The notes beneath the pieces were generated by a model. It saw only the letters and a program-made list of their open reading frames with translations. It searched no databases and was not told the origin of the DNA. A stretch of DNA of 20,143 nucleotides from Candidatus Hodarchaeota archaeon (GTDB taxonomy: Archaea; Asgardarchaeota; Heimdallarchaeia; Hodarchaeales; Hodarchaeaceae): positions 1 to 20,143 of the forward strand of contig JAEOTQ010000212.1 of assembly GCA_016839785.1 (NCBI GenBank), written 5' to 3'. A program made the translations under genes and the position numbers. Shown one piece after another: positions 1,401 through 15,969 of this stretch; positions within the stretch are counted from its first letter, which is position 1; every line of letters begins with the position of its first letter.

Positions 1401-2162
1401 TCAAGGAATTTTCCTTTTTTCTACCCCTGTATATTTTGCTTCTGACGGGACAATTGTTCGTACAGGACGCTGTGCGAATTCCTCTAATATATGTGCTGTG
1501 AGCCCCGTTATACGTGAAATAGCAAAGAATGCTTTTCCTATTGCGGCTTCGAATCCCATATCAGCAAGTAATGCTCCAATTGCTCCATCAACATTGAGGG
1601 GTAACGGTCGACTTGATTGGAGAGTTAATTCTGTAGCAATTATTTTTGCTAGTTCTACAAACTTCCCACTGATTCCCTCTTCCGAGGCTACATGCAATAG
1701 CTTTTTTGTTCGGGGATCATCTGTATGAAAACGATGGCCAAAACCTGGTATTCGTTGTTTTTTCTTTTTTGCTTCAGTAACTACGTTTTTAGCTAATTCT
1801 GAAAGCGATTGATCCTTTTCTTGCATTCTAAACGCGTTTTTCAGGAATTTAATACATTCCTCTCCAGCTCCACCATGATGATCGCCAACTGCAAGTATTC
1901 CAGCCCCTAAAGCTGTGGTAATGGGTACACCACAAGAGGCTACTGTTCGTGCAGTCACTGCACTAGGAGCGGTCACTCCATGATCCATAGTTGCTACTAG
2001 AATGGCATTAATGACCCTTTCTTCTTGTTTAGTTGGTAATTCTCCCTTTAGTGCTAGATAAATGCCTGTTGGATAAGAAATGGAACCGATGAGTTCATCT
2101 AGGGGGTAGCCTCTAAATAGGAGTTCATTTGGAGAGACTTTCGTAATTTTAGTTTCCCACAT
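1401..2162 (-). CDS. Citryl-CoA lyase (short citrate-synthase-fold protein)
   Basis: About 253 aa. N-terminus WETKITKV..NELLFRGYPLDELIG; motifs DHG..APSA.TAR..AS, HHGGA, IPGFGHR, DPR, LNVDG, SRITG. The length and N-terminus fit Ccl rather than a full citrate synthase. The start at MWETK (2162) is preferred over 2210. Confidence 0.8.
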   Translation of the reverse strand: MWETKITKVSPNELLFRGYPLDELIGSISYPTGIYLALKGELPTKQEERVINAILVATMDHGVTAPSAVTARTVASCGVPITTALGAGILAVGDHHGGAGEECIKFLKNAFRMQEKDQSLSELAKNVVTEAKKKKQRIPGFGHRFHTDDPRTKKLLHVASEEGISGKFVELAKIIATELTLQSSRPLPLNVDGAIGALLADMGFEAAIGKAFFAISRITGLTAHILEEFAQRPVRTIVPSEAKYTGVEKRKIP

Positions 2163-2221
2163 ACGTTTTTCTTCCTGATTTTCTGTGAGGTGAAGGGATT
2201 GTTTTAACATTTCTGAAGACC

Positions 2222-2425
2222 ATGACTAATTTTGTCAGACAACTTATAATAACTAATTCTGGACAGGATGAGGTAGCTGTCGACGATGTAGTAGTTACAG
2301 TTCATGAAGTGATGGATCCATTAACAACCGATTTTTCTTCAACATCTGATCAGGGGAACTCTACTTCCTTCTCCACTATGGCAATGATATTCGCCTTGGT
2401 TATGGTTTGTCTACTAAGTGGTTAG
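2222..2425 (+). pseudogene. Small ORF or remnant resembling the C-terminal end of a membrane-anchored surface protein
   Basis: A beta-strand-like segment DEVAVDDVVVTV, then an S/T-rich linker (TTDFSSTSDQGNSTS), then a hydrophobic stretch (FSTMAMIFALVMVCLLSG). TAG follows, and the same frame continues KRCKR. A pyrimidine/T tract lies downstream. No signal peptide. Confidence 0.4.
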
Positions 2426-2446
2426 AAACGATGTAAAAGGTATGAA

Positions 2447-2469
2447 CTTTTCCCCCCTCCCTTTTTTTT
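2447..2469 (+). terminator. Pyrimidine/oligo-T tract, candidate archaeal terminator
   Basis: ttttcccccctccctttttttt directly after the small ORF at 2222-2425. Confidence 0.35.
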
Positions 2470-2604
2470 ATATTCTTATATTTTACAAACCAGCAATGCT
2501 TAAATCCAGTGATTTTTTCTCATCTGTCATTAAGCAAACCCTTTTCGTATTGGAACTTACTACCGTTTCCTAAATGTAGTGAAGCATTAAACGGAGCTCC
2601 TATA

Positions 2605-4164
2605 ATGGCTACACATGTTACAAATGTATTGGGAAGAAAATTTCCTAAGAAGGTTTTTGGCAAAGTTTTAGAGCCATATAAGGGAATTCACAATAGCACA
2701 ATTGCAGGTAAGAGAGTGGGTACTACTTATCAAGCAACATATATCTCTCGGAAAACTAAACGCTTTTTTGATTCACTGGAAGAGCTTTTCAAGGTTTTAC
2801 CTCTTCGGGATGGGATGTCCATATCATTTCATCACGCGTTGCGAAATGGTGATAATGTTGTCCTACCTATAGTGGAAGCACTAGCATCATATGGCATTAA
2901 AAACATTACTCTTGCTATTACAGCTTTATTTCCCGTTCATTCCCCTCTAATCGAATTCATCCAATCGGGAGTAATTGGAAGGATTGAAGGAAGTGTGAAT
3001 GGCCCCTTAGGCAATGCCATATCACGAGGGGAAGTTGCAGTTCCAACTACCCTTCGTTCACATGGAGGACGGACTCGTGCTGTCCAAGAAGGAAGTTTAC
3101 CCGTCGACATTGCATTTATAGCTGCCTCAACATGTGATTATATTGGAAATTTAACAGGTATGGTCGGTAAACACGCTTTTGGCAGTTTAGGCTATCCGTT
3201 AGAAACAGATTCCTTATATGCAGACATAGTAGTTGGGGTGACTGATACTATCATCAATGAACCCTTAACACAAATCAGTATTCCTTCAAGTCGAGTCGAT
3301 TATGTGTTAACAGTGGATTCTATTGGGGATCCTGCAAAAATTGCATCGGGGAGTTTAGGAAGAAAACCCTCCCCACAAAGGTTGGCTATTGCAGAAAGCG
3401 TAGTACAAGTCATGGAACTTTCTGGCTATCTGAATATTGGATTCAATTGGCAAGCTGGAGCTGGTGGAATATCATTAGCGGCTTCTCAATATCTGAAGGA
3501 ACTTATGGCTGATAAGAATATCCGTGGAGGGTATATATTTGGGGGTATCGCGACTAATTCAGTGAAGATGCTCGAAGAAGGATTATTCAAAGCCATTTAT
3601 GATGCTCAGTCTTTTGATTTAGGTGCTATCAAATCATTAGAAGAAAATGAGAATCATGTCGAAGTGTCTATCGATCATGCGTATAATCCATATAATAAAG
3701 CCTGTATTGCACTAAATACAGATTTTACAGTTCTTGGAGCAACGGAAGTCGATCTGAACTTCAATGTTAATGTAAATACTTTTAGTAATGGACTTCTAAA
3801 TTCGGGAATAGGAGGACATCAAGATGCAGCCCGAGCCAAGGTAAGTATGATCGTGGTTCCTGTTGCTCGGAAAGTACCCTCTATTCTTGACTCAGTTACG
3901 ACAGTAAGTACACCAGGAGACAGTATTGATTTAATCATTACAGATGGTGGGATAGCGCTCAATCCGCATTCTACTCCGAAACGATCAAAGATAGAAAAGC
4001 GGTTACGGAAGGCCGGAATAAAATTAAGAGCAATAGAAGATTTGAAAGAAGAATCGTATAGTCTTGCCTCCCCAATAAGTCCTGAATTTACTTCTGATAT
4101 CGCCACACTCATTGAATATCGAGATGGTACCTATTTAGATGTGATATACCAGATGGTAGATTAA
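2605..4164 (+). CDS. citF: Citrate lyase alpha subunit / citrate CoA-transferase
   Basis: CitF motifs: N-terminal NVLGRKFP, DGMSISFHHALRNGD, LRSHGGR, QAGAGG, LGATEVDLNFNVNV, GGHQDAA, TPGDSID..ITDGGIA.NP, C-terminal IEYRDGT.LD.I. ATG 2605 (GGAG at 2593-2596) is preferred over GTG 2509. Confidence 0.92.
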   Translation: MATHVTNVLGRKFPKKVFGKVLEPYKGIHNSTIAGKRVGTTYQATYISRKTKRFFDSLEELFKVLPLRDGMSISFHHALRNGDNVVLPIVEALASYGIKNITLAITALFPVHSPLIEFIQSGVIGRIEGSVNGPLGNAISRGEVAVPTTLRSHGGRTRAVQEGSLPVDIAFIAASTCDYIGNLTGMVGKHAFGSLGYPLETDSLYADIVVGVTDTIINEPLTQISIPSSRVDYVLTVDSIGDPAKIASGSLGRKPSPQRLAIAESVVQVMELSGYLNIGFNWQAGAGGISLAASQYLKELMADKNIRGGYIFGGIATNSVKMLEEGLFKAIYDAQSFDLGAIKSLEENENHVEVSIDHAYNPYNKACIALNTDFTVLGATEVDLNFNVNVNTFSNGLLNSGIGGHQDAARAKVSMIVVPVARKVPSILDSVTTVSTPGDSIDLIITDGGIALNPHSTPKRSKIEKRLRKAGIKLRAIEDLKEESYSLASPISPEFTSDIATLIEYRDGTYLDVIYQMVD

Positions 4165-4187: not shown

Positions 4188-4919
4188 TTAATCTTGGACG
4201 TCATCAGAAAAATGGACGGTAAAACCAAGCGATTGGAGATGTTTCAAGAAATCCACCGCTTCCTCGTCTGCAGTGGTTTTAAAACTAATGATTATCGAAG
4301 GAGCAAGCTCCGAAACCATTTTTTTGGTCAGTTTCCCAGATCGTGACTCCGTTGCTTGAATGCGTTTCTTAATGATTTTATTTCTAATGAGACTTGTTTT
4401 ATCATAAAAGCGAATATATGTGAATCCGAGGATAGGATCATCAGAGGGGGATCCTTCAGAGACTCTAGAAGCTTTTTTCTTCTTGATGATATCAAAAATT
4501 GTATCTTGAAGCTTTTCTCCAGCTTTAACCGCGAGTTTCGCTGCATCATCGACAGTTTGAGTGACTGTATCAACGATATTTTTGGGTTGACCTTCTTTAT
4601 CTAAGGAAATATAATTATACTTGATTTCATAGAAACTGGGTTCAAAAATAATATTATATCGTGGGGGGTATCCAATTTGGTCTTTTATAAGCCGATAGGC
4701 GAAGGAACCACCTGGGATGAATGATAGTATTCCGTGAAAAGCTGTTTCAATGGCAACAATCTTTGCAATTTCTGTTACACCCTCTATGTTTTGTTTATTG
4801 ATCCAAAAACATCTAGGTTGTTTCTGAATTATACCTGCAACAAGGTAACCCTGATAGGCTTCTAAGACTTTGATATGCTTCAAATCATAGTTTTGTTCAA
4901 AAAACTTAATTATGGACAT
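4188..4919 (-). CDS. Hypothetical protein (243 aa)
   Basis: Long ORF with ATG start filling the space between citF and the next divergent promoter. It has one amphipathic segment (AFHGILSFIPGGSFAYRLI) and Lys-rich patches. No family recognised. Confidence 0.7.
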   Translation of the reverse strand: MSIIKFFEQNYDLKHIKVLEAYQGYLVAGIIQKQPRCFWINKQNIEGVTEIAKIVAIETAFHGILSFIPGGSFAYRLIKDQIGYPPRYNIIFEPSFYEIKYNYISLDKEGQPKNIVDTVTQTVDDAAKLAVKAGEKLQDTIFDIIKKKKASRVSEGSPSDDPILGFTYIRFYDKTSLIRNKIIKKRIQATESRSGKLTKKMVSELAPSIIISFKTTADEEAVDFLKHLQSLGFTVHFSDDVQD

Positions 4920-5189: not shown

Positions 5190-6776
5190 ATGGCTGAACC
5201 CATAAGTATAATACTGTTTAAAGGTCCTAAATGCGCCATGTGCCGGCCCGTTGAACGCCACCTTAAACGTATCGTTGAAACTTCTCAAGGAGGGGCAACA
5301 TTAAAGACTATAGATACGGATGAACATTCTGATATTGCTACTAAACGCTATCATGTGTATCAGGTTCCCCATGTTCTGTTTAACGATGAAGAAGTGCTTA
5401 ATGCCACCCAAGCAGCGGGAATGTTCTCTTCGTTTGGGGGTGAAGATTCTGGTATGTTTTCTTCTGAGCAGTATGATCTCTTCAATTATCTTTTTAATAA
5501 GCTGATTGAAGCCGGTGTCAAAGATAGTGAGGCTTACCGGGATCGGTGGCGAAAACTGTCCATTATCACCGTTTCTGGTCGATTATTAGACGTCGATGAA
5601 TTGGAAACGGTCATACGACCGTCCATTGGGGATTATGTTCACATAGGTCATTTACAAGCAATTGTCACATCATTAATTGCAATTAATCCCGTTGCTAAGG
5701 GGTATTTATTCCGTGCGGGTGAGTTAGCGGGGAAGTTTGGTGCTGCGCAATCGTGGTTACACAGTTATAACCGCAATATTATGAATGAACACCGGATGAA
5801 AAACCGTTTTAATGAAATGTTGAAAGGGTTCAAAATTTTGTATGGTCCAAATCCCATGGCCTTAAATGTGGCTTCTGATCTAACTATTGATCGAATTTCC
5901 GATTATCATGTTAAACTACATGTAAATGGATCAGCTCATGCGGTTGAAAATTCTGATATTGGCCAAGATGTTTGTGGGTTTTTTGCTGGGGAAATTGCGG
6001 GGTTAATTGAGGTTACTCTTGGAGAAAAAGCAGCGGTTACGGAAACCAAGTGTTGGGGACTTGGTGATAATCATTGTGAGTTTGATATCAAGCTGGGAGA
6101 AGTTTCTGATCATTATAATATTTCAAATATCGAATCGAAAGAATTTTTCAGTGAGAATGATCGTCTAAGATTTGAATTGTCCATTGGCCAAATTTCTAAA
6201 AATATGTACGAATCTCTTCTGAATAAAAAATGGATGCGGCCTGAAATCGGAGATTTTATTCATATCTCTGTCTTACAGCATATTCTTACATCCCTTAAAT
6301 TTTCTGATCCATTTAATTCAACATTATTATCATATGCTGGCCAACATTATGGACAGATCTTAGAGGATATTGGTATTATTAGCAGAATTATCAATCGTCG
6401 GGGGCTAGATGCAAAACTCCTTGGGGCTATGGAATTTGAGCAAGCTTGTGAAGTCTTGAGCTACTATTTTGATAAAAACTTAAGTTCTCCAAAAATTCTT
6501 TCTGATGTTGTGGTTCAACAGATCGATGATGAGAGTGCGATTTTCAAAGTTTGGGAGAGTGCTGCCACCTCAGGTATTGATTTAACAACGGTTGATCGAG
6601 TCAATCTATTTCCTGGGTTAGATCAACCTCCTGAAGTAAATATGCTGGATGATTTTCTTTCTGGATTTATTAATGGTAGATTAGATCTTTTCATTGAGGA
6701 AGATGTTATTGTTCGTGAAACCAAATGTCAAGCTAGTGGACACCCTCACTGTGAATTTTTAGCAGAGTTAGATTAA
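5190..6776 (+). CDS. Thioredoxin-domain protein fused to two tandem V4R (4-vinyl reductase-like) domains
   Basis: N-terminal Trx fold: FKGPKCAMC (C15/C18) and YHVYQVPH cis-Pro loop. Two repeats start RPSIGDYVHI (aa 143) and RPEIGDFIHI (aa 350) and end ETKCWGLGDNHCEF and ETKCQASGHPHCEF, matching the V4R signature E..C...G...CEF. Confidence 0.85.
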   Translation: MAEPISIILFKGPKCAMCRPVERHLKRIVETSQGGATLKTIDTDEHSDIATKRYHVYQVPHVLFNDEEVLNATQAAGMFSSFGGEDSGMFSSEQYDLFNYLFNKLIEAGVKDSEAYRDRWRKLSIITVSGRLLDVDELETVIRPSIGDYVHIGHLQAIVTSLIAINPVAKGYLFRAGELAGKFGAAQSWLHSYNRNIMNEHRMKNRFNEMLKGFKILYGPNPMALNVASDLTIDRISDYHVKLHVNGSAHAVENSDIGQDVCGFFAGEIAGLIEVTLGEKAAVTETKCWGLGDNHCEFDIKLGEVSDHYNISNIESKEFFSENDRLRFELSIGQISKNMYESLLNKKWMRPEIGDFIHISVLQHILTSLKFSDPFNSTLLSYAGQHYGQILEDIGIISRIINRRGLDAKLLGAMEFEQACEVLSYYFDKNLSSPKILSDVVVQQIDDESAIFKVWESAATSGIDLTTVDRVNLFPGLDQPPEVNMLDDFLSGFINGRLDLFIEEDVIVRETKCQASGHPHCEFLAELD

Positions 6777-8849: not shown

Positions 8850-11393
8850 GTGGCTCGTAGGAAACCAGCAGCTCCGCAAATTGCTTTCTTTATTGTCAAC
8901 CATGGAATTCCTACTGTGAGTATAGGCTTTAGCAATGAACAAAGTGTTTTATTCGGTGGAATATTGACTGCTATTTCATCATTGACAAGTTCAGAAACTG
9001 GGATGGGGTTGTTGGATGACATTCAAGCTGAAAAGGGACGAATTTTTATCCAAAATGTTGGTCATGATTCTCTCGTCGGATTTTTCATTTGGAGTAAGAC
9101 CCATTTTGAACAAAAGATTGAGGGTCAAATCAAAGTTCTAGCAGGAGTTTTAGGAAACAAGTACCTTTCTGATTACATCTGGAATCCCGCATTTGAAGAA
9201 ATATTACTCGTTGGTTCTTTACCAGAACGATTTCAGGTCAAATTATGTTATCAAGCTGTTGTTGCTTGGCGGAAACAGGTTCGCCATTCACCATTTCGTG
9301 AAACCGACACTTTGGAAAAATTATTAACAGGAATAGATAAGGATTTTATTCAAGATGCACTGGGTTTAACATTAGCAGATTTAACCTATGCAGAGAAAAT
9401 TGAAAATGTCATTAATGAAGCTGTATGGCTTGCGTTGGGATCTTTATTAAAAGATGATATGTCCATATTAATAACTGCAAGAAAAATTGAATCTATTCTA
9501 CCAACTCTGCGATCCAAGATTAAAACCATTATTACTCAGGAAATTAATCTTCAAGGACCTGCTGCTGTATTGAACCAGGTGATGAAAGACATTGAATTTC
9601 ATTGGCCTGAGAGCCAGCCAAAACAAGTAACAGCTGGTTTACTACTTAAAGAATTTATTTCTGGCTATGTAGATACTCCGTTTGGGGAACAGGGTTTAGT
9701 AATTACCAAACAACTCCTTGATCTTGCTTTTCCAAACAAAACTCTTGATACGATTTTTCAATCGGGAGAACTAATTCAAATGTTAACCGAAGAAGAGGCT
9801 CATTTTAATTTTCGAAAAAATCCCTTCTTCAACGCTTTTTTAAGTTTTTTAATAGAGCTAACTCCAGAAAAAATAAAACCATTGAGTGGGTCTCAGCTCA
9901 AAAAAGAGTTAACGGGCTTAATTTCACGTAATAGACCTCTGCCTAGTATGGAGATCGATCGAGTATACGATTTATCAGGGAACCCTGAAACTGCAACCTA
10001 CGCTCAAAAATCCCTTGAAAATGCTTTGATTAAAACTACCTCATCTTTATTGTCTTATCTATTAATAGGTAATAATTCTAACGTAGGAAAGGTATTTTCA
10101 GACCTAACTTCCTATATTAAACAACTTGCTGAACGGGTGGAAGAGGTTAATCATCTTACTACATTTTTACAAGATTTACTTAACTATAAATGGCGTACGG
10201 TAATCCTTAATGGGTGTTTACCCTCCATCCAAGAGTTAAACACCACTAATATCTGTTCCATACTTAAAAATGATCCTGGTAAATACATCAAGCAATTTGA
10301 GCAAAATAATTCTCGTAAAATTCACGAAGAACTTCGAGAACCTCTTCTTTCAGCTATCGAAAATGCATGGATAAGTTTGAAGAGTGGAAATTCTACTTTA
10401 GACATTGAGATGCGCTTTGATTACCCTAATCATGAAAGCATTACAAAAAAAGTCGTAAATGGACTGAAAAAACTCTCAAAGAAGGTTAAATCCAAGAAGA
10501 ACATAAATGACCAGGAAATCGCATCAATAAAAGACTATGTGAACAAAGAGATTCAACGGCTAGAAGAGAAACTTTCGAAAGAAATCAACGGTTTTGAGAA
10601 GCTTATTCTAGCAAGGAAAGTACCTGAACCTCCCTGGTTTAAATTTGTACAAACAGACTCAGGTTGGCAGGTTCCTGAATCTTCAGCGATACTGAAACAC
10701 GTTTCTACAATTTTTACAATGGAAAATCTTTTTCCCAAAAAAGATAAAGAAAGTAAACAGGCGTATGCAGTGTTTGATCAACTCAATGGTCTACATTTTG
10801 CTATTGAGATGATTACAGCAAATCATTTCTATGATCAGATTCCTTCCAAGTTAATAAACATGGTCGAACATCCAGTAAAGTTTGAAAAGAATCAGGCAAT
10901 CAAAACCCTTCGAGAAATGCGGTATAATGAAGGAGTTATTGCATTAAGAGATTATTTAGTGTCAAACGCTGGGTTAATTACTTCCCTCCTCTCCCAAGGA
11001 TTTGCATCAATTAAGGATTCTTACATTAAGAATAATCCTGAGGTCCTAATGGACGATGAAAATCTCCAGAACCCAAATTATCTCCATCTTATGGAAATCC
11101 CTCGTGAAATTCTAGAAGATGTGCCTCCAGCAGATATATTTGGTGATAATTACTTTAATTACTTAACTACACATAATACGGTTAAAATTGGGTTTCATTT
11201 ATCCAAATGGAAAGGAAGAGGGAATGATTTGTATGAGTTACTTATATCTTCAAGTTCTTTGGAAAATGCTTATTTGTATAAACAAGCAACAAAAATCCTT
11301 GGGCATTTTTCAGGTTATGTTTATTCAGCCGCAGTTGGGAACTTGGAAGTTTGTCCACCTGAACTAACACGAATTAGTGACTTATTTCTATAG
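8850..11393 (+). CDS. Large hypothetical protein with N-terminal longin-like domain and a basic coiled-coil segment
   Basis: 847-aa ORF with GTG start and GAGGA upstream. The N-terminus FFIVNHGIP...SVLFGGILTAISSLTSSETGMGLLDDI..EKGRIFI follows the Asgard longin pattern GIP...LF.G.L.AI..F..E...G.L..I. The rest appears mostly helical and includes KKVVNGLKKLSKKVKSKK...EIQRLEEKLSKEI. Confidence 0.65.
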   Translation: MARRKPAAPQIAFFIVNHGIPTVSIGFSNEQSVLFGGILTAISSLTSSETGMGLLDDIQAEKGRIFIQNVGHDSLVGFFIWSKTHFEQKIEGQIKVLAGVLGNKYLSDYIWNPAFEEILLVGSLPERFQVKLCYQAVVAWRKQVRHSPFRETDTLEKLLTGIDKDFIQDALGLTLADLTYAEKIENVINEAVWLALGSLLKDDMSILITARKIESILPTLRSKIKTIITQEINLQGPAAVLNQVMKDIEFHWPESQPKQVTAGLLLKEFISGYVDTPFGEQGLVITKQLLDLAFPNKTLDTIFQSGELIQMLTEEEAHFNFRKNPFFNAFLSFLIELTPEKIKPLSGSQLKKELTGLISRNRPLPSMEIDRVYDLSGNPETATYAQKSLENALIKTTSSLLSYLLIGNNSNVGKVFSDLTSYIKQLAERVEEVNHLTTFLQDLLNYKWRTVILNGCLPSIQELNTTNICSILKNDPGKYIKQFEQNNSRKIHEELREPLLSAIENAWISLKSGNSTLDIEMRFDYPNHESITKKVVNGLKKLSKKVKSKKNINDQEIASIKDYVNKEIQRLEEKLSKEINGFEKLILARKVPEPPWFKFVQTDSGWQVPESSAILKHVSTIFTMENLFPKKDKESKQAYAVFDQLNGLHFAIEMITANHFYDQIPSKLINMVEHPVKFEKNQAIKTLREMRYNEGVIALRDYLVSNAGLITSLLSQGFASIKDSYIKNNPEVLMDDENLQNPNYLHLMEIPREILEDVPPADIFGDNYFNYLTTHNTVKIGFHLSKWKGRGNDLYELLISSSSLENAYLYKQATKILGHFSGYVYSAAVGNLEVCPPELTRISDLFL

Positions 11394-13968: not shown

Positions 13969-14121
13969 CTCAATAACCCATGAATTCTATCTTTACCAAG
14001 CTCACAAAGTCTTGCTTTCATTAATTTGTCTCTTTGATATCTCAAGAATATATCATCCTCATGTTGTCTGAGTAAGATGTGGCCTAAAAATGGTCGAGGA
14101 TTATTGATAGATGAGTGCAAA

Positions 14122-14592
14122 ATGCAAACAGCCTACTTGGAAATCATTCATTTTCTCGGAGACACTGGTTATTATGCCAGAACAGAGACAGAAAGAGGTA
14201 TTTTGACTACTCTTTCTGAAAAAGGACTGATTCAGTTAAAAAAAGGAACTAAAAGTGTTTATTGTTTGACTAATATTGGTGAGAGATATCTTCAAGGTCA
14301 AAAACCCATGAAAGCAGATCTAAGTGATAATCAGTTTCTCTCACTACTAAGAGAAGCTTATACTTCCTTAGCCACCCCAATGAAACCATTGGTTCGCATA
14401 CCTGAGATCCGTGAAAAATTAAACACCAGAAACCCGATCCCCGATCCCTATTTCGATAAGAAGGTTCTATCCTTTCATGACCAAGGGGTCCTAACTTTAC
14501 AAACTGCGATGTCTAAATCTCATGCAGGATATGGAGGTATTAATTCCAATACTGGAACAGGTGTTTTTTACTACTTAACTTTTGAGGCCTAG
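14122..14592 (+). CDS. Putative DNA-binding protein with two winged-helix-like domains (RcaD-like by recollection)
   Basis: N-terminal LTTLSEKGLIQL....VYCLTNIGERYL is a typical wHTH wing plus helix. C-terminal LVRIPEIREKL....FDKKVLSFHDQGVLTLQ...GGI....GVFYY. It ends 6 nt before the ATPase gene. ATG 14122 is preferred over 14077. Confidence 0.6.
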   Translation: MQTAYLEIIHFLGDTGYYARTETERGILTTLSEKGLIQLKKGTKSVYCLTNIGERYLQGQKPMKADLSDNQFLSLLREAYTSLATPMKPLVRIPEIREKLNTRNPIPDPYFDKKVLSFHDQGVLTLQTAMSKSHAGYGGINSNTGTGVFYYLTFEA

Positions 14593-14598
14593 ATTAAG

Positions 14599-15969
14599 AT
14601 GACTCAAGTTACCAATCTAATTATAGAAAATCCTTTTCATAATTTTACTGCACGAGCGGACGTACCTGAAATATTCAATCTGTTACGCCCGAATAAAGAT
14701 GCTATAAATAGAATTTCTCATGCGCTTGAAACCGTAAGAAAACAAAAGAGGGAATCAATGATTGTCCCAGTCATAGCTGAGGCTGGATACGGAAAAACTC
14801 ATTTTTATTGGGTTGTTCGCGAGCAGGTCACGAATGCATATGTTGTTTACGTTCCTGTACCAACTAATCCAAATAGAATTTATTCCCACTTTTACTTCGA
14901 GACGGTTAAAGCAGGAGGTTCGGCTCTTTTGGAGTATGTTGCGGATTTCCTTGTTCAGAAGTATAAAAAGGTTGAAAATGCTGCATTCGAGTTTCCTGGC
15001 CTAGGAAATGTTGTTATCGAAGGTTTTTTTGCTCTTAAAGATCCTAAACAATCAAAATTGGCCCTCAAATGGTTTACCGGTTTTGATATCGATGAAGAAA
15101 CCAAATCATTTCATAGAACTATTATGGATGATGAAGAACTAGCGTTTGCAGCTCTCAAGGTTATTCTGAAGTCTGTGGACAAACCACTAATTTTCTTTGT
15201 AGATGAGTTAGAATCTCTTTTTATTTCCCTGGGACCTGAAGCAGAGCTTCAATTATTAGAAAGTATCAAAAAGATGCATAATGAGGCGAGTAATTTTGTT
15301 CTCTGTCTTGCCTGTCTGGCGACTTTATGGGATAAAATCCTTGATCTATCTAGCACCGCAGTTCAAAGTCGTATTGAACCCCCTATCCTGTTAAAGCGAT
15401 TTACTAAAAACGATATTCAAGATTACTGTGTTCACATGTTAAAAGATTTTCATCAAAAATTTGACCTTTCTTTGTCGGAAGAAAACTCTACTTGGCCTTT
15501 AGGGAAATCAGATATTGAATCTGCCTATGCCTATTCTCATGGAAACCCTCGTGAGGCAATCAAGTGGTTAGCGGGTGTAACTGAAGAGAAAAAAGCCCCT
15601 ATATTAAAAGAATTAGGAAAAAATCAGAAATTTCTAAGTAATCACGGTAAAAAGATCAAATCTGCACTTGGAAAACCCAAAGGAGTTACAATTGGAGTTC
15701 TTCAGCGAAACAATGGGCTTCAAATTTCGGTTTCTGAAAAGGATAATCGGTACTTGATAATAATTCCCCCTCAAATAGATCTGGAACCAATATTCGAAAA
15801 TTCATTCATTGAAGGGTTAAAAGAAGACCTCGCCAAAGAAAACTATTCCGAGGTCATTTTACTTGGTGAAGAGACACCCTTCAAGAAAAACGAGATGGAA
15901 GTCACTTCTTTCTCAAAAGATGATATAAAAGGTTTAACGGAATACGTGGAGAAAATTTCTAAAAATTAA
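14599..15969 (+). CDS. AAA+/STAND-like P-loop ATPase with uncharacterised C-terminal domain
   Basis: N-terminal NPF, Walker A AEAGYGKT (aa 60-67), Walker B IFFVDELE, Arg-finger-like VQSRI, sensor-2-like GNPREAI. Confidence 0.85.
   Translation: MTQVTNLIIENPFHNFTARADVPEIFNLLRPNKDAINRISHALETVRKQKRESMIVPVIAEAGYGKTHFYWVVREQVTNAYVVYVPVPTNPNRIYSHFYFETVKAGGSALLEYVADFLVQKYKKVENAAFEFPGLGNVVIEGFFALKDPKQSKLALKWFTGFDIDEETKSFHRTIMDDEELAFAALKVILKSVDKPLIFFVDELESLFISLGPEAELQLLESIKKMHNEASNFVLCLACLATLWDKILDLSSTAVQSRIEPPILLKRFTKNDIQDYCVHMLKDFHQKFDLSLSEENSTWPLGKSDIESAYAYSHGNPREAIKWLAGVTEEKKAPILKELGKNQKFLSNHGKKIKSALGKPKGVTIGVLQRNNGLQISVSEKDNRYLIIIPPQIDLEPIFENSFIEGLKEDLAKENYSEVILLGEETPFKKNEMEVTSFSKDDIKGLTEYVEKISKN

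Follow-up and report, generated by a model that had tools for sequence, protein, structure and literature searches.

Cleavage of citrate is the committing step of the reverse tricarboxylic acid (TCA) cycle and of citrate fermentation, and four textbook routes carry it out: the citrate lyase CitDEF, ATP-citrate lyase, citryl-coenzyme A (citryl-CoA) synthetase with citryl-CoA lyase (CCS/CCL), and reversed citrate synthase. A stretch of 20,143 nucleotides from a member of the Hodarchaeales (contig JAEOTQ010000212.1 of assembly GCA_016839785.1; the whole stretch is referred to below as the window) raises the question of what a citrate CoA-transferase gene of the CitF family does when its neighbor is not another citrate lyase subunit gene but a gene for a short citrate-synthase-fold protein of the citryl-CoA lyase (Ccl) type. 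The genome is a metagenome-assembled genome (MAG) of this Asgard order, 4.04 Mb in 248 contigs and 84.5% complete. Hodarchaeales are among the closest archaeal relatives of eukaryotes, and Asgard central carbon metabolism is debated with regard to the origin of eukaryotes and of the eukaryotic ATP-citrate lyase. The identities of the two genes, the failure to find the classical partners, and the conserved linkage of the pair, all observed here, support at the level of comparative genomics the hybrid lyase that the original prediction had proposed, and we lean somewhat toward the view that citF and ccl make up a two-enzyme, carrier-free citrate-cleaving module that would work through free citryl-CoA.

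The open reading frame (ORF) listing and the Pfam and NCBIfam scans agreed that a full-length citF stands divergent from a Ccl-type gene, as had been claimed for this locus. The ccl ORF (positions 1401-2210, minus strand; 269 amino acids [aa]) scored 146 bits against Pfam Citrate_synt, where the best stretch was confined to the C-terminal portion of the profile (164-350 of 357). It passed the NCBIfam citryl-CoA lyase model NF004869 (279.8 bits; cut-off, 212) as well as NF004866 (252.2 bits; cut-off, 245) and fell below the equivalog model NF004864 (239.8 bits versus a cut-off of 261). The top solved relative was PDB entry 6hxp_A, "Citryl-CoA lyase" (E = 9.7e-58 over residues 15-269), a structure reportedly from the ATP-citrate lyase structure paper; citrate and methylcitrate synthase structures matched at E values of 1e-22 or weaker. 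In an alignment of 15 homologues, H112-G-G-A, G158-H159-R160, D165-P-R167, D208, R233, and R251 were all invariant; these make up the motifs HGGA, GxGHR, DPR, and NVDG plus two more arginines. H112, H159, and D208, together with R167, R233, and R251, presumably equate with the catalytic His/His/Asp and the oxaloacetate-binding arginines of pig citrate synthase. With these catalytic motifs intact, the protein is predicted to cleave citryl-CoA. Its relatives are 253 to 256 aa long and are named citryl-CoA lyase, the closest homologues and loci being those of organisms named Candidatus Hodarchaeales, Hodarchaeota, or Heimdallarchaeota archaeon. The real start codon is probably that of M17 at position 2162, which would give a protein of 253 aa, matching these relatives.

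CitF matched Pfam PF04223 over its full length (434.8 bits; profile positions 3-465 of 466), showed 41% identity with E. coli CitF across 481 residues, and had PDB entries 1xr4_A (E = 6.6e-110) and 2hj0_A (E = 2.6e-106) as relatives of known structure. The residues T380-E381-x-D383 were invariant in 20 CitFs and aligned with "ALEID" of E. coli CitF. The mechanically called ORF opens with a GTG codon (2509-4164, plus strand; 551 aa). However, the gene probably starts at the ATG at 2605 (2605-4164; 519 aa), because the family-wide N-terminal motif N-x-x-G-R-x-x-P begins there and because a four-species DNA alignment places an in-frame TAG in the upstream extension of a close relative (L050). A GGAG lies about 11 nucleotides (nt) upstream of this ATG.

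None of the genes of the classical system was found with the pair. Pfam and NCBIfam scans of the window confirmed that citD, citE, citC, citG, and citX are missing beside citF and ccl, and they revealed no ligase gene beside ccl. The search of the whole genome, by profiles and by tblastn with the E. coli proteins, gave the same outcome, which favors the carrier-free reading. Neither CitE (HpcH/HpaI, PF03328) nor CitD (PF06857) had a match in this 84.5%-complete genome; CitC (PF08218), CitG (PF01874), and CitX (PF03802) were found in 0 of 5 genomes, this one included; and the E. coli CitC, CitD, CitE, CitG, and CitX queries hit nothing in this genome at 1e-3. An internal control came from 78 CitF-bearing genomes surveyed for CitD and CitE, 28 of them Asgard and the other 50 non-Asgard ones in which CitF adjoins Ccl. 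CitD was present in nine, namely, all eight of Heimdallarchaeia family f7 and the single one of family f5, and in these genomes citD, citE, and citF are adjacent, as in G289 (contig C14: citD, 281977-282225; citE, 282290-282946; citF, 283314-284711). The CitE genes of the nine scored 198 to 224 bits against PF03328. CitD was found neither in any of the 18 CitF-bearing genomes of the genus studied here (this genome included), nor in the one f4 genome, nor in any of the 50 non-Asgard genomes, among which is G301, a complete 1.79-Mb Thermoplasmatales chromosome (CP070836.1). Likewise, CitE exceeded the PF03328 cut-off in 0 of the 18 genomes of the genus; the only match there, in G130, was below the threshold (20.4 bits). 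Family f7 genomes mostly carry two complete citD-citE-citF clusters each (in G289, C14:281977-284711 and C61:169561-172321).

What we infer for the pair, from its substrates and CoA donor to its direction and physiological role, would be as follows. Judged by its family membership, CitF would move CoA from acetyl-CoA to citrate, yielding (3S)-citryl-CoA and acetate (EC 2.8.3.10). Ccl, judged by its close similarity to the solved Ccl of Hydrogenobacter type (6hxp) and its intact motifs, would split citryl-CoA into oxaloacetate and acetyl-CoA (EC 4.1.3.34), and the acetyl-CoA released would prime the next round. The net reaction would convert citrate to acetate and oxaloacetate without ATP, and neither a CitD carrier with its phosphoribosyl-dephospho-CoA group nor maturation by CitC, CitG, and CitX would be needed. 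Both steps are known partial reactions. The equation of citrate with acetate plus oxaloacetate is near equilibrium at standard conditions, and cleavage is therefore favored at cellular (millimolar or lower) concentrations. A possible role of the pair would be to cleave citrate made from 2-oxoglutarate and isocitrate via aconitase, beside ATP-citrate lyase.

The same pair, run in reverse, would be an energy-saving citrate synthase, with Ccl condensing acetyl-CoA and oxaloacetate and CitF passing the CoA to acetate. Both partial reactions are reversible in principle, and in three genomes that carry the pair (G301, G302, and G130) no full-length citrate synthase was shown, the only such proteins being Ccl and an AclA-like protein. 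Nevertheless, we regard synthesis as quite unlikely, given that thermodynamics strongly favors cleavage at millimolar or lower concentrations, that very high acetate would be required, and that the present genome has a full citrate synthase domain on contig C69. Cleavage by the pair is thus the direction retained below.

Conservation of the pairing was examined among relatives, with 301 Asgard genomes sampled for CitF and 33 Heimdallarchaeia genomes sampled for the short Ccl. CitF occurred in 28 of the 301, all of one class: this genome and 17 of 20 others of its genus, 8 of 11 in f7, 1 of 11 in f4, and 1 of 1 in f5. The short Ccl exceeded the NF004869 cut-off in 8 of the 33 genomes, all in this genus, and every one of the eight genes shares a contig with CitF at a distance of 0.3 to 2.9 kb. 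Five of these form directly divergent pairs whose matches lie about 0.3 kb apart (G000, G238, G130, G292, and G211); in the window, the two ORF calls are separated by 298 bp.

Several sister genomes present CitF with a different neighbor. In nine genomes of the genus, CitF adjoins a frame of about 710 to 720 aa of the CcsB-Ccl type, and at three loci that were read closely (L039, L040, and L046) this frame is part of a two-gene CcsA-like plus CcsB-Ccl operon convergent to CitF. The operon (L039:6828-10249 and L040:7463-10935; also in L046 and L048) encodes a SucC/CcsA-like subunit of 428 to 443 aa and a fusion subunit of about 707 to 714 aa, in which a SucD/CcsB-like part is joined to an almost complete citrate-synthase domain (profile positions 10-352 of 357). 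It differs from the 427- plus 610-aa AclBA of the present genome and might represent another kind of ATP-dependent citrate lyase. In G292 and G211, one and the same CitF is flanked by both the short Ccl and the CcsB-Ccl operon. As a tentative and rather doubtful extension, CitF-type transferases and ATP-dependent citryl-CoA synthetases could be interchangeable feeders of a single Ccl module, both being present at one locus in these two Hodarchaeales.

The linkage extends well beyond Asgard archaea. An alignment-based Ccl scan covered 185,579 species, each represented by one genome, and the best 80 of 429 confirmed relatives were classified by their neighbors. CitF stood beside Ccl at 55 of these 80 loci. 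At 48, it immediately precedes ccl on the same strand, with no more than about 60 bp separating the two by tblastn, and these citF-ccl operons come from 46 Thermoplasmatota and from 2 genomes labeled Methanobacteriota; the other 7 are divergent and belong to 5 Hodarchaeales and 2 Calditrichota. At 14 loci, from assorted anaerobic bacteria, a CcsA/SucC-like gene takes the place of CitF upstream of Ccl; 4 loci have a contig end within 1.5 kb, and 7 have neither a CitF nor a CcsA/SucC-like gene. The pairing and synteny of citF and ccl are strongly conserved among Hodarchaeales and, in operon form, among Thermoplasmatota. Adjacency that recurs for 8 of 8 short Ccls of relatives and at 55 of 80 loci elsewhere is not due to chance.

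This recurrence bears on the view that the two genes are neighbors without a shared pathway, with CitF as a hydrolase or transferase of acyl-CoAs in general and Ccl as the partner of some other synthetase. Such a view could draw on the divergent transcription of the pair, on the other neighbors (a thioredoxin reductase [TrxR]-like gene and a 243-aa ORF), which are lineage specific and functionally uninformative, and on CitF paralogues of the genus that are found elsewhere beside ZIP transporters and CinA. We consider it very unlikely, since three separate lineages of Ccl show the linkage, which comes in two gene orders.

These lineages were apparent in a Ccl tree of 87 rows. The CitF-linked Ccls fell into three groups: 9 rows from Hodarchaeales (support of 100), 49 from Thermoplasmatota (support of 98; two contig-cut rows are included), and the 2 from Calditrichota, which nest as a pair among bacterial CcsA-linked Ccls. 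CitF linkage requires at least three changes on this tree, and the gene order leads us to infer a repeated swap of an ATP-dependent citryl-CoA synthetase for CitF, or the reverse. The case for CitF as the supplier of citryl-CoA to Ccl draws its strongest argument, one from gene order, from this repeated exchange. The CitF tree, also of 87 rows, was built under LG+G4 with a quick search and support only from the SH-like approximate likelihood ratio test (SH-aLRT); it has no outgroup and a long E. coli branch, and some of its rows are labeled "none" solely on account of short flanks. In it, the 11 Asgard CitDE-linked CitFs and E. coli CitF were split from 75 carrier-less CitFs with an SH-aLRT value of 98. 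The Hodarchaeales CitFs formed a clade of 27 (support of 100) that divides into 12 linked to Ccl or CcsB-Ccl and 15 that hold the aconitase-linked paralogues.

The same gene orders and trees could also accommodate a different CoA donor. Were CitF to use succinyl-CoA or some other acyl-CoA, the pair would turn citrate and succinyl-CoA into oxaloacetate, acetyl-CoA, and succinate and would be an ATP-free equivalent of ATP-citrate lyase rather than a citrate lyase. CitF indeed holds the place of the CcsA/SucC-like genes of 14 of the 80 Ccl loci and stands beside the CcsB-Ccl-type frame in 9 sister genomes, and such systems yield acetyl-CoA. Moreover, the carrier-less CitF lineages are separate from those that depend on an acyl carrier protein (ACP), so that donor specificity may have changed, and a Thermoplasmatota CitF gave weak NCBIfam side matches to succinate and butyryl CoA-transferases, which reflect family kinship only. 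Yet the sequence does not indicate the donor, the closest characterized relatives use acetyl thioesters, and SucCD is encoded in this genome, so that succinyl-CoA would still cost ATP. A succinyl-CoA donor therefore seems rather unlikely, and acetyl-CoA is kept here as the putative donor.

Whether citrate itself is the substrate could be addressed from further neighbors, by a Pfam scan covering 19 Thermoplasmatota-type loci. A fused aconitase-family gene follows ccl at 8 of the 19 (L054, L059, L064, L065, L077, L086, L092, and L107). In the present genome, a second CitF is encoded on contig C245 (535 aa; 51% identical to the first) directly upstream of AcnA, a bona fide aconitase at 1,279 bits, and this paralogue passes TIGR01584 (504.1 bits; cut-off, 501.45). 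Aconitase beside a CitF paralogue here and beside ccl in Thermoplasmatota points to citrate as the substrate. An analogue such as 2-methylcitrate, homocitrate, or citramalate would instead fit the observation that the Thermoplasmatota aconitase-family neighbor matches best with the homoaconitase/isopropylmalate-dehydratase subfamilies (NF001614; 362 to 403 bits), the fact that the citrate-synthase fold also covers 2-methylcitrate synthases, and the score of CitF, which is under the TIGR01584 equivalog cut-off. We consider an analogue improbable, since Ccl passes two citryl-CoA lyase models, matches the citryl-CoA lyase structure (E of 1e-57) far better than methylcitrate synthase structures (about 1e-17 to 1e-18), and belongs to a genome in which a CitF paralogue adjoins a bona fide AcnA. 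Citrate is thus the substrate that we favor. At 5 of the 19 loci, a B12/radical-SAM gene follows ccl.

The same scan revealed a small HDIG-type HD-domain gene adjoining CitF at 17 of the 19 loci (for example, L059:4976-5497). The usual order is HD-CitF-Ccl, and L102 and L108 have CitF-Ccl-HD-CitF; the corresponding place in L089 and L103 showed no HD gene. In the present genome, a homologue with 40% identity is followed after 11 bp by an isocitrate/isopropylmalate dehydrogenase gene (C153:5684-7397; L134), an arrangement that connects the HD protein with enzymes acting on tricarboxylates in two phyla.

The pair is not the only system for citrate in this genome. Contig C168 encodes a two-subunit ATP-citrate lyase, of 427 aa (Citrate_bind and Citrate_synth_N) and 610 aa (CoA_binding, Ligase_CoA, and Citrate_synt), and therefore the pair is not the sole citrate-cleaving system. 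A full citrate synthase domain is present on C69 (Citrate_synt; 409.9 to 411.9 bits). The genome, 84.5% complete, yielded no dedicated CcsAB; queries with CcsA and CcsB-Ccl matched only SucCD-like genes on C229 and AclAB on C168. In the search for ccsAB and aclAB, absence thus held for the former and failed for the latter. The description of CitF as stand-alone fared similarly: it is correct in that no classical partner lies beside the gene, and incorrect in that the gene is not single, given the 51%-identical paralogue upstream of aconitase.

Several observations weigh against a carrier-free citrate lyase. With ATP-citrate lyase and a full citrate synthase already present, nothing explains why a second route of cleavage would be needed, and Pfam and NCBIfam revealed neither a citrate transporter nor an oxaloacetate decarboxylase near the pair. 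The two genes are divergent in this genome and not co-transcribed; moreover, at three of the eight Hodarchaeales loci (G119, G107, and G190) CitF and Ccl are 1.85 to 2.9 kb apart, and in the two that were read, G119 and G107, a GTPase gene is inserted between them. CitF scored 487.5 bits against TIGR01584, just under the equivalog cut-off of 501.45, and the CitF tree includes just one bacterial classical CitF. The MAG is 84.5% complete. Four of the 50 genomes from outside Asgard, and also G181, encode HpcH/HpaI-family proteins of 99 to 116 bits, that of G181 on a contig other than that of its CitF; these are presumably other HpcH-family aldolases and not CitE. As to the chemistry, citryl-CoA in its free form is chemically labile, and acetyl-ACP is said to serve classical CitF better than free acetyl-CoA does.

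The proposed module resembles several known systems in part. Citrate (pro-3S)-lyase, CitDEF with CitC, CitG, and CitX (EC 4.1.3.6; E. coli citCDEFXG), has a CitF of the same family and a chemistry and net reaction like those proposed here. In contrast to that system, this genome yielded no CitD, CitE, CitC, CitG, or CitX, the lyase step would be carried out by a citrate-synthase fold unrelated to the CitE/HpcH fold, the thioester would be that of free CoA instead of a tethered prosthetic group, and the CitF lies across a tree branch from the CitDE-linked CitFs. The citryl-CoA synthetase of Hydrogenobacter thermophilus and its citryl-CoA lyase, CcsAB and Ccl, were reportedly described by Aoshima in 2004; they share with the present pair a homologous Ccl (6hxp_A) and a free citryl-CoA intermediate. 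There, however, citryl-CoA is made by an ATP-dependent ligase, whereas here it would come from a CoA-transferase without ATP and, with acetyl-CoA as the donor, the product would be acetate and not net acetyl-CoA. ATP-citrate lyase AclAB has a C-terminal module homologous to Ccl (6hxj and 6qcl) and also cleaves citrate via citryl-CoA but is an ATP-dependent ligase-lyase fusion that yields acetyl-CoA. Succinyl-CoA:malate CoA-transferase with malyl-CoA lyase follows the same logic of CoA transfer followed by ester cleavage, although the protein families are unrelated and the substrates differ.

The original prediction had further held that the combination of CitF with Ccl was not known as a described pathway. 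This was borne out within the literature searched, which covered citryl-CoA, citrate lyase, Asgard, Thermoplasmatota, and Thermoprofundales, with supplements and subscription-only papers outside its scope: no description of a CitF plus Ccl system was found. A citE without citF or citD was noted in Cenarchaeum (PMC1403158), a paper that also cites the speculation that CitF and CitD are replaced by other enzymes in Thermoproteus tenax; the citE-only case is the mirror image of the CitF without CitE described here. Ignavibacterium is reported to have a CitF and a CitE-CitD fusion (PMC3362086). Only ATP-citrate lyase or CCS/CCL served as a marker of the reverse TCA cycle in the sections consulted of PMC9802188 and PMC11287216, and for Asgard archaea solely ATP-citrate lyase was mentioned in those of PMC11976288 and bioRxiv 385732. 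The words citrate, citryl, and citF do not occur in the accessible part of the Thermoprofundales paper (PMC6461988), and the excerpts of PMC6593406, PMC13502194, and PMC12806544 held nothing relevant to the CitF plus Ccl content.

If the proposed reading is true, the pair would be a fifth, hybrid route of citrate cleavage, one part a fermentative enzyme and one part an autotrophic enzyme, that would do without ATP, a carrier protein, or prosthetic-group biosynthesis. Dozens of sediment archaea appear to have this route, here an Asgard archaeon, and pipelines that seek aclAB, ccsAB/ccl, or citDEF would miss it. If the feeders were interchangeable, cells could alternate between cleaving citrate with and without the expense of ATP; if succinyl-CoA were the donor, a cheaper reverse or branched TCA cycle would be implied for many sediment archaea. 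In genomes without citrate synthase, the pair may be the only route between citrate and oxaloacetate.

The intergenic region between the two genes (2211-2604) contains an A/T-rich, TATA-like stretch near 2465-2495, consistent with an inferred promoter role, and conserved DNA before the citF ATG. The last 85 nt or so (about 2520-2604) show DNA-level conservation among four species that exceeds that of the rest of the intergenic region, and a leader hairpin is possible there in which CGUUUC would pair with the GGAG of the ribosome-binding site. The consensus hairpin was weak (-5.6 kcal/mol with 2 compensatory pairs) and the leader had no Rfam match at an E value of ≤1; a riboswitch-like leader was rejected on these two grounds.

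The full citrate synthase domain on C69 is part of a fusion protein of 618 aa (C69:12075-14248; L008:4075-6248) that also contains a PduL-type phosphate acyltransferase (PTAC; 233.2 bits). A BMC-domain shell protein of 106 aa is encoded directly downstream, and frames of 615 to 623 aa with the same citrate synthase part occur in at least six genomes of the genus. The combination of BMC-domain proteins and a citrate synthase-PduL fusion looks unusual for an archaeon. The CitF paralogue most widespread in the genus has a CinA-like gene on one side and genes for ZIP or ABC-3 metal transporters on the other (L135 to L137; G256, G241, and G208). This context of ZIP transporters and CinA in three sister genomes gave no metabolic clue; a link to metal-citrate uptake is only a thought.

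Two neighbors of the pair were considered as partners and rejected. The TrxR-like gene (397-1395) adjoins the pair only in the three closest relatives. Convergent to citF lies an ORF of 243 aa (4188-4919, minus strand) that belongs to no Pfam or NCBIfam family. It is single-copy and genus specific, being present in 20 of 21 genomes of the genus and in 0 of the 30 other genomes searched, and its gene adjoins CitF or the CcsA-like operon in some genomes and is far off in others; because it is kept in two genomes without CitF and is distant from any CitF in several, it is not a partner. Farther along the plus strand of the window, an ORF of 847 aa (8850-11393) has no family match in Pfam or NCBIfam, an ORF pair of 171 and 456 aa (14077-15969) has just a weak match to AAA_22, and positions 5190-6776 encode a protein of 528 aa in which an N-terminal thioredoxin-like domain is joined to two V4R domains.

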